A stretch of DNA of 64,000 nucleotides from Sphingomicrobium sp. (GTDB lineage: Bacteria > Pseudomonadota > Alphaproteobacteria > Sphingomonadales > Sphingomonadaceae). The stretch lies in contig DASUIC010000067.1 in the NCBI GenBank assembly GCA_036273215.1, positions 2,897 to 66,896 on the forward strand. The letters run 5' to 3'. Shown one piece after another: positions 17,519-20,011 of the stretch (positions within the stretch are counted from its first letter, which is position 1; each line of letters opens with the position of its first letter). The translations under genes and the position numbers were made by a program. The notes beneath the pieces are model-generated. The model did no database searches. It saw only the letters and a list, made by a program, of their open reading frames with translations, and had not been told where the DNA came from.

Positions 17519-20011
17519 ATGAAGATCGCCTGCATCGGCGGCGGGCCGGCCGGGCTCTATTTCGCCATCTCGATGAAGCTGCGCGATGCGCGCCATGAGG
17601 TCGAGCTGTTCGAGCGCAATCCGCCGGGCGTGACCTTCGGCTGGGGCGTGGTCTTTTCCGACCTCACGGTCGAGAACATCACCGCCAACGATCTGGTCTC
17701 CGCTGAGGCGATCACCAGCGAGTTCGCGCACTGGGACGACATCGACGTCCATTTCAAAGGTGAGACGATCACGTCGGGCGGGCACGGCTTCATCGGCATC
17801 GGCCGCAAACGCCTGCTCGAAATATTGCAGAACCGCGCGCGCGAACTCGGGGTCGTGCTGCACTTCGAAGCAGAGTGCGATCCTGCCGATTCGAAGTGGC
17901 GGAACTACGATCTCGTCATCGCCTCCGACGGCGCCAATTCGCGCTTCCGCGACGCGGACCCGCAAGCGTTCGGAGTCGACATTGACGTCCGCGCCAACAA
18001 GTTCGTCTGGCTCGGCACGACCAAGGTCTTCGACGCCTTCACCTTCGCCTTCGAGGAGACCGAGCACGGCTGGATCTGGGCGCACGCCTACCGCTTCGCG
18101 CCCGATTGCTCGACCTTCATCGTCGAATGTTCGGAGGAAACCTGGCGCAACTTCGGCTTCGACAAAATGTCGCAGCAGGAGAGCATCGCCGCGTGCGAGC
18201 GGCTGTTCGCCAAGTACCTCGACGGGCATAAGCTGCAGTCGAACGCATCGCACCTGGTCGGAAGCGCGGCCTGGCTCAACTTCCGCCGCATCAAGTGCGA
18301 ACGCTGGACCAGCGGCAACACCATCCTCCTCGGCGACGCCGCGCATACGGCGCATTTCTCGATCGGCAGCGGCAGCAAGCTCGCTCTCGAGGATGCGATT
18401 AAGTTGGCGAATGTGCTGACGCGCGTTTCCTCCCCATCGCAGAGCGATGGGGAAGGGGACCATGCGGAGCATGGTGGAGGGGATCGAAGTGCGCGGCATG
18501 CCGGAGGCATGCCGATTGCGCGAGATCGGACGCGAGAGGCGTCCGTGAGCGCCGAGTCAGTCACCCCTCCACCGCCTTCGGCGGTTCCCCTCCCCACCGC
18601 TTCGCGGGAGGGAGGAACGCTGTCCCTCGAAGCCGCGCTCGACGAATATCAGGCGGAGCGCAGCCTCGAAGTGCTCAAGCTCCAGAACAGCGCACGCAAT
18701 TCGACCGAATGGTTCGAGACACTCGAGCGCTACACCCATTTCGAGCCGCTGCAGTTCGCTTACTCGCTGCTCACGCGCAGCCAGCGGATCAGCCACGAAA
18801 ATTTGCGGCTGCGCGACCGCGAATGGCTGGAGACGGTCGAACGCTGGTTCTGGAAGCGCGCGACGGCGGGCAAGTCGAATACAACCGCGCCGCCGATGTT
18901 CGCCCCCTTCAAGCTGCGCGAAATGAAGGTCGAAAACCGCATCGTCGTCTCGCCGATGGACATGTATTCGGCGGTGGACGGCGTGCCGAACGACTTCCAC
19001 TTCGTCCATTACGGCGAGCGCGCGCTCGGCGGCGCGGGGCTGGTCTTCACCGAGATGACCTGCGTTTCGCCCGAGGGCCGCATCAGCCCCGGTTGCACCG
19101 GCATGTGGAACGCCGGTCACGTCGCCGCGTGGAAGCGGATCGTCGATTTCGTCCATGCCAACTCGAAGGCGAAGATCTGCCTCCAGCTCGGCCATTCCGG
19201 CGGCAAGGGGTCGACCAGGGTCGGGTGGGAAGGCAACGACGTCCCGCTCGACGAGGGCAATTGGCCGGTGATTGCAGCAAGCGACGTGCGCTGGTCGGCG
19301 GCCAACCAGGTGCCGACGCCGATGACCCGCGCCGACATGGACGCGGTGCGAGACCAGTTCGTCGCCGCGGTGCGCATGGGTGTCGAGGCGGGCTTCGACA
19401 TGGTCGAGCTCCACGCCGCCCACGGCTATTTGCTCGCCGGATTCATCAGCCCGCTGCAGAACAGGCGCACCGACGACTATGGCGGCTCCCTCGAGAACCG
19501 GCTCCGCTATCCGCTCGAAGTCTTCGCCGCGATGCGCGAGGCGTGGCCGGGCGACCGGCCGATGTCGGTCCGAATCTCGGCGACCGACTGGGCCGGCGAC
19601 GAGGGCATCACGCCCGAGGACGCGGTCGAGATCGGCGAAGCCTTCGCGCGAGAAGGCGCGGACCTGATTGACGTGTCCGCGGGGCAGACCTGGGCGGGCC
19701 AGCAGCCGGTCTACGGCCGGATGTTCCAGACCCCCTTCAGCGACCGCGTCCGCAACGAGGGCAGGCTCGCGACCATGGCGGTCGGCAACATCTACGAGCC
19801 CGACCACGCCAATTCGATCCTTGCCGCCGGCCGCGCGGACCTGGTGGCGCTGGCGAGGCCGCACTTGATCGACCCGTTCTGGACCCTCCGCGCCGCCGCT
19901 GCGCTGGACTACCGCGACGTCCACTGCCCACCCCAGTACCTCAACGGCCTCGCCCAGCTCGCCCGCAACCTGAAGCGCGACGCCGAGGCCGCGGCAGCGC
20001 TCAGGGTGTGA
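17519..20011 (+). CDS. Bifunctional salicylyl-CoA 5-hydroxylase / anthraniloyl-CoA monooxygenase-oxidoreductase, with in-frame repeat insertion
   Basis: FAD domain [35 protein letters not shown] domain [31 protein letters not shown]. Confidence 0.92.
18427..18617. repeat. ~190-bp multi-hairpin palindromic element, copy B (in frame inside CDS)
   Basis: Homologous to 12052-12240; translated as [35 protein letters not shown]...[17 protein letters not shown]. Confidence 0.92.

Follow-up and report, generated by a model that had tools for sequence, protein, structure and literature searches.

The locus and its host gene

The window analysed here, a 64,000-nucleotide stretch from a Sphingomicrobium species, carries at 17519..20011 (+) a gene for a protein of 830 residues whose close relatives are annotated as anthraniloyl-CoA monooxygenase, the named ones belonging mostly to Sphingomicrobium and Sphingomonas. 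The product is a bifunctional salicylyl-CoA 5-hydroxylase/oxidoreductase, with a score of 1248 bits against NCBIfam model NF006101 (curated cut-off 1078), and combines an FAD monooxygenase domain (Pfam PF01494) with an OYE-type FMN domain (PF00724). The host of the enzyme is a soil bacterium. Within the gene lies a palindromic element of 191 bp (18427..18617, +), made of two convergent arms around an 80-bp spacer that contains no nuclease gene, and the open reading frame of 17519-20011 passes through it unbroken. The element is 91% like an intergenic sister copy of 189 bp at 12052..12240 (+), the stretches 18427-18618 and 12052-12241 having 176 of 194 bases identical (E 4e-71). The core of the original prediction, that a palindromic element is inserted in frame in an enzyme gene, is thereby borne out.

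The element occupies a linker, residues 301-369 (18419..18625, +), that has 69 residues here and six codons in orthologues with an empty site. Alignment with orthologues gave the gap that had been expected: of 121 close homologues 117 could be parsed, and the six-residue form is present in 65 of these. An equivalent linker in distant orthologues, the outcome that would have told against an insertion, was not found, since the linker is 4-7 residues long in 85 of 89 mostly distant homologues and 11-20 in the remaining four. The protein has therefore gained a net 63 residues (189 bp) rather than the 64 first given, so that the lengthening is real and only its size is corrected.

An AlphaFold model of the enzyme, built on a 90-row alignment, has a mean pLDDT of 88 and a confident FAD-monooxygenase fold whose best match is VioD; together with the NF006101 score this upholds the view that both catalytic domains are intact. 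Residues 301-369 are modelled as coil between helices 285-300 and 370-400, with pLDDT below 50 at 314-360. The insert thus lies in a predicted disordered loop at the surface, where structure prediction had been proposed to look for it, and is likely translated as a floppy 63-residue segment. The host gene is under purifying selection, with dN/dS of 0.08-0.21 against other filled alleles (27 pairs).

The risk of an assembly artefact, raised at the outset, can be judged from contigs of other sequencing runs. The left junction is bridged with 0 differences in runs X2, X3, X5 and X8 and the right junction with 0-4 differences in X2, X3 and X5; the contigs stem from four other studies, one run of which may be the source sample, and they bridge the junctions separately, no single contig extending at least 31 letters beyond both ends of the element. 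In the contigs of run X5, letters belonging to the intergenic copy appear in the one inside the gene, perhaps through conversion or contig collapse. Three RNA runs contained only relatives, at 85-95% identity, and their contigs cannot show transcription; in one of these (X18, record 21) a related right arm is continuous with the downstream gene, and the allele is empty in three contigs.

Arm structure and the repeat family

The left arm (18427..18482, +) is built from a pyrimidine block, hairpin 1, a purine block, hairpin 2 and a mirror purine block, with one mismatch, and the right arm (18563..18617, -) is the same unit on the opposite strand. Between them lies a nested two-hairpin module of 65 bp (18483..18547, +) that is also present in the intergenic sister and has four copies in this genome. 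A profile search of the 2.38-Mb genome found 92 arm units, where a shuffled genome gave none; the 92 units make up 55 elements, 37 of which are convergent dimers. The arms begin TCC or TTCC. The three-block layout with a mirror third block is present in all four arms of the window and in 62 of the 92 arms of the genome, a modest excess over the 30% seen in controls with the third block shuffled, and the third block co-varies with the second between arm subfamilies. Across 85 arms, hairpin 2 comes in 54 sequence versions, yet it has at least four perfect pairs in 69 of them, and its loop is GNA in 45 arms as against the complementary TNC in one. Such variation with pairing preserved, and GNA loops confined to one strand, suggests that the arm folds as single-stranded DNA. 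Judged from sequence, the arms have a BoxC/triplex-type layout and are putative triplex formers.

The element has terminal inverted repeats and no coding capacity, as a MITE has. Arms and spacers are mixed between copies, and in the 37 dimers direct repeats at the ends, as expected of a target-site duplication, were no more frequent than in a mismatched-flank control. The 65-bp module has long matches in nine other genomes of 200 searched, and of its 18 long loci 12 are at the inner end of an arm, five between the two hairpins of an arm and one alone; the lone module (L444) is upstream of a clpP-like gene. No viral match to the module was found. The full-length element was absent from the plasmids searched, pieces of arms being present in 12 sphingomonad plasmid records. 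Neither a RAYT (PF01797) nor a Y1 gene was matched in this genome (G000), which is 89% complete.

The intergenic copy and other in-frame copies

The intergenic copy lies between the divergent starts of a tRNA-synthetase-like gene, probably GluQ-like, and a conserved HNH gene. The corresponding site is empty in 18 of the 21 relatives that could be parsed (of 29), and three hold other arm subfamilies; these three refilled sites appear, by eye, to have lost target bases. A 374-codon reading frame (11881-13005) runs through the copy into the HNH gene; the HNH protein seems to begin at 12445, and what precedes it in this frame is probably a spurious N-terminal extension. The HNH gene was considered as a mobiliser of the copy and rejected, its region being matched in genomes of the genus whether the site is filled or not.

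Is one frame of the element suited in advance to coding, as had been proposed? The frame used in the enzyme is indeed open in the intergenic copy as well, although this says little, since three of the six frames are stop-free in both copies, any given frame stays free of stops in 44.5% of shuffled copies, and the 5' end of the intergenic copy is shifted into another frame by indels in the first hairpin. Among 87 arms, every one of the six frames is open in 70-83, so that none stands out; dimers have on average 3.6 of 6 frames open against 2.7 in shuffles, the copies not being independent. Moreover, in-frame elements use two reading frames, the inserts in RNase R and LigD being in the second, and the idea of a single pre-adapted frame has therefore to be given up.

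The proposed count of copies shows that, under a codon model, 5 of the 55 elements are in frame inside genes, which encode the salicylyl-CoA 5-hydroxylase/oxidoreductase, RNase R, a UvrD/PcrA helicase, LigD and methylmalonyl-CoA mutase. The suggestion of an RPE-like family in sphingomonads thus holds for dispersed palindromes and for in-frame entry into a conserved gene, but not for frequent insertion into coding sequence. Of 30 RNase R loci 23 could be parsed, and three of these are filled; of 30 helicase loci 11 could be parsed, seven of them with differing arm subfamilies in the loop. Each set was ordered by similarity to the filled query, and one row of the helicase set is from the unpublished genome G020.

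Association with DUF559 nuclease genes

Two of the 37 dimers, with spacers of 353 and 361 bp, enclose a gene for a DUF559 protein; these are the two long dimers, and no cognate transposase gene was found between such ends. Convergent arms bracket every one of the five DUF559 genes in the genome, and in three cases, by eye, the arms are of other subfamilies. Across the genus, where the best match of each of 30 genomes (one being G000) was taken, three-block arms are present on both sides in 24 loci (arms as such in 24-25) and on at least one side in all 30, compared with none in divergent orientation and none at 400 random places. At many unrelated sites the two arms that converge on a DUF559 gene are of matching subfamilies, and DUF559 itself is patchy (38 of 61 genomes). 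The proteins match a solved chain, 3hrl, of an endonuclease-like protein and retain an E-x-D-G-x-x-H-like motif, which we take to be catalytic. A search of phages gave only two weak DUF559 matches.

On contig C157 (L372) a DUF559 cassette is located directly upstream of the RNase R gene, which itself carries an in-frame arm dimer of a subfamily differing from that of the cassette; such a cassette is likewise upstream of RNase R in two relatives (L365, L366). In nine genomes of the genus, DUF559 cassettes with differing arms (L341-L344, L348, L349, L353, L354, L361) are upstream of what is, by eye, apparently the same dehydrogenase gene start, which looks to be a second fixed site for these cassettes.

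Repeat families in the enzyme loop

The linker that is filled in the window is also filled in relatives, by single arms or dimers of the DUF559 family and by four other repeat types. Among the 117 close proteins 23 loops are of DUF559 type, 17 of CGTC type, six are short remnants, five hold an orphan palindrome, one a second GxxExxY-type repeat and 65 are empty, the filled share being inflated because the proteins were ranked by likeness to a filled query. Of the 17 CGTC-type alleles, 10 carry a GxxExxY-type repeat inside, much as the 65-bp module lies inside arms. The CGTC-type repeat flanks a small GIY-YIG gene (L340), the tag being present on both sides in 9 of 16 small GIY-YIG loci, and the two GxxExxY-type repeats flank GxxExxY genes (L318-L320). 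Pattern scans that did not depend on the insert fetched at least 240 loci, of which 213 were parsed (two rows being duplicates); among the matches listed, 20 of the 213 have inserts of at least 42 bp, all of them multiples of three and one (L146) with a stop codon.

No other internal insertion of at least three residues is present in the 117 close proteins. Loops near residues 215, 265 and 390 take indels in distant homologues and are unhit in close relatives, and tolerance alone hence looks insufficient to account for the choice of site. Filled alleles are scattered. A DNA tree of 70 rows, 15 of them filled, needs 14 changes against a shuffled mean of 13.8, and a protein tree at least 27 changes, many forks of both trees being weakly supported; in several starred pairs a filled allele has an empty sister. 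Filled alleles share features across families, namely a TCN serine codon (21 of 23 filled, 17 of 67 empty) and T, V, I or L at linker position 3 (48 of 52 filled, 0 of 65 empty), which could mean that they have one common ancestor; a test on independent pairs for the TCN codon gave 6:1 (p 0.125), which is not significant. The short remnants TRTSPSLS are in one starred clade together with a nested allele. No co-conversion tract was detected, in that divergence near the linker is no higher between filled and nearest-empty alleles than between empty ones (14 filled, 44 empty).

The insert often belongs to a family resident in the same genome. For instance, the orphan palindrome is present at 24 sites in G015 (L458-L472), where it fills the enzyme loop, and at none in four other genomes; neither a partner gene for it nor a RAYT was found in G015. 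Likewise, the D-type repeat has 12 matches in G036, with one weak RAYT match in that genome, against 1-4 in others, and the type of insert corresponds to resident repeats in G000 (the 65-bp module with its four copies), G015 and G036. In G027 the loop copy is the sole arm match and in G010 the loop has the sole D-type matches, which fits relics or import from another lineage. A full DUF559 cassette in the enzyme loop was not seen among 59 region hits, a number that is not proof of absence. The loop is likely a shared landing site for selfish DNA, and may be chosen through either a target-sequence preference or a priming scar.

Origin of the insert

What placed the element in this gene? Our preferred reading, which we hold with moderate confidence, is that the insert is a nuclease-less derivative of a DUF559 cassette that was placed by nuclease cutting and repair, not by a transposase, and that is translated. 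By analogy with SsnA and its own repeat, DUF559 would recognise the folded single-stranded arm and cut near it, and so confer mobility on the repeat. The break would then be filled in repair with a copied arm, pair of arms or nested module, often at the cost of a few target bases. Only events that keep the frame would survive, with selection retaining them in tolerant loops, and the enzyme loop would have been entered many times, usually by the repeat family resident in that genome. The pairing of DUF559 with arms could instead reflect a host function, as reported for SsnA. The original prediction missed that the arms are the ends of DUF559 cassettes, their BoxC/triplex layout, the movable 65-bp module and the use of one loop by several families.

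A wider reading is more tentative, and we put it forward as possible rather than probable: an 18-bp stretch of this enzyme gene would serve as an active landing site common to the repeats of three unrelated small nucleases, DUF559, Ssn/GIY-YIG and GxxExxY, all using one transposase-free cut-and-refill route, with DUF559 as the missing enzyme of BoxC/triplex repeats. If so, the loop peptide would be rewritten again and again. DUF559 and its arms offer a concrete candidate enzyme-repeat pair for these long-unexplained repeats, and the Ssn layout of a repeat, a tiny nuclease and a repeat is extended to two further nuclease families within a single genome. The alleles also form a natural series, as one loop of an assayable enzyme exists empty and with more than a dozen inserts that are 2-63 residues long and of unrelated origin; with this series one can ask whether such repeats simply persist where a loop tolerates them or are attracted to certain places.

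It is unlikely that host processes alone have spread the repeats, through recombination, template switching or fork trouble at hairpin or triplex DNA, with DUF559 only binding to them or riding along. The mixing of arms and spacers between copies would suit such processes, as would the link between triplex motifs and local instability, given without a mobile-element connection in the text available from PMC4666352, and the account of SsnA in the available text of PMC11893778 as a restriction-like nuclease in transformation, with repeat expansion a mere hypothesis. They sit poorly, however, with matched convergent arm pairs around DUF559 genes at many unrelated sites, with the patchiness of DUF559 and with empty orthologous sites, which show gain and not decay alone.

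Another proposal, which we regard as quite improbable, is that the loop was primed once, an ancestral repeat having left a scar in which later repeats nest or which they replace, and that very short recombination patches carry the filled linker from lineage to lineage. This would make sense of the TCN codon and third residue common to the families, of the nesting both in CGTC repeats and in arms, of the TRTSPSLS remnants beside a nested allele and of the orphan copies in G027 and G010; divergence beside the linker is, however, not raised between filled and nearest empty alleles, the insert type often equals the resident family, and filled alleles have empty sisters in several starred pairs. 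Priming is partly compatible with the preferred reading of cutting and repair.

Removal of the insert at the RNA or protein level, leaving an enzyme of normal length, had already been judged the less likely course and is hardly credible now. The element does fold far better than shuffles (RNA z -8.0, DNA z -6.8), its RNA forming one long stem with paired ends, but a search of 11500-19000 gave nothing above noise in Rfam and no group I or II intron fold, and no Pfam intein domain was matched. Inteins have characteristic residues at their splice junctions, and the junction residues in the sequence do not conform to this motif. The site, moreover, takes inserts of unrelated sequence and length, and the 20 inserts of the pattern scans all preserve the frame, a constraint that splicing would not impose. 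A fresh pseudogene or an assembly error can practically be dismissed, for while activity and expression are putative and the filled allele L146 has a stop, the junctions are bridged in several studies, the dN/dS ratio is low and both domains are intact.

Relation to known repeat systems

The element recalls the Rickettsia palindromic elements (RPEs) in that a palindromic repeat of 150-190 bp is in frame in a conserved gene and adds a peptide loop, as the available text of PMC10969869 and PMC3733652 describes. It differs in that only 5 of 55 elements are in frame, that two frames are used with no conserved peptide and that there is a candidate partner nuclease; it is therefore RPE-like in effect but not an RPE, a separation drawn from descriptions rather than from sequence comparison. 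With bacterial MITEs, as outlined in the accessible part of PMC10969869, it shares non-autonomy, inverted ends, a stem-loop and an autonomous counterpart with a gene between the same ends, whereas it has no target-site duplication and the enclosed gene is that of a nuclease and not of a transposase. The Caulobacter CIR is likened to it by its MITE description only, not by sequence.

The pyrimidine, purine and mirror purine blocks, and the inverted pairs on opposite strands, resemble BoxC/PIT/TM(ECO) repeats (PMC4666352, text seen in part), and several DUF559 arms of the genus have the short-loop TM form. In the arms of this genome, unlike in those repeats, both loops are extended by hairpins to 9-20 nt, and 0 of 92 arms satisfy the ITxF rule of 1-6 nt. 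TM(ECO) is described, in the same part of PMC4666352, as always intergenic and without a link to mobile elements.

The order of repeat, small single-domain nuclease and repeat, together with strand-specific hairpins, is that of the Ssn system (NTS/SRM, CGTC-type), in which the pairing of GIY-YIG with a CGTC-type repeat is published (PMC11893778, as far as its available text goes), and repeats of that system fill the same enzyme loop in relatives. The window insert, however, has no CGTC tag and pairs with DUF559, another nuclease family, of putative activity. Intragenic GTAG/CGTC REPs are also similar, as REP dimers have been reported in frame in sphingomonads too and in DNA-repair genes such as UvrD (PMC3733652, available text); the present element differs in its arm sequence, in lacking a GTAG end and in that no RAYT was found. 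In the part of that work consulted (Di Nocera 2013, PMC3733652), different REPs occupy about the same site in Xanthomonas recB, and other genes have different sites; a term search of four of its supplements returned no salicylyl or anthraniloyl enzyme. In-frame palindromes (RPEs and the sphingomonad intragenic REPs of PMC3733652), triplex repeats and Ssn are thus already in print, going by the portions of these papers available. A search at the level of titles and abstracts, which took in few subscription papers, found no published account of DUF559 or GxxExxY pairing or of a loop used by several families.

Other repeats in the window and the genome

Further repeats accompany the element. One of 269 bp (2115-2383), with terminal inverted repeats of 25 bp that are 96% complementary, starts at the stop codon of a gene ending at 2115 and resembles a classical MITE of a different sort. 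A dimer of the CGTC-type (Ssn-system) repeat at 16468-16553 overlaps the apparent start, at 16526, of an alpha/beta-hydrolase reading frame, so that the first residues of the hydrolase are probably derived from the repeat or the true start is downstream; a repeat of the same type flanks a GIY-YIG gene on contig C86. The dimer at 51554-51636 is of the type that flanks GIY-YIG genes at L332, L336 and L338. Elsewhere in the genome, contig C10 (2336-2836, L320) has a GxxExxY gene between its own inverted repeats, and five short gene-less pairs of this repeat are found at other places, some of them nested in CGTC repeats (C26, C87).
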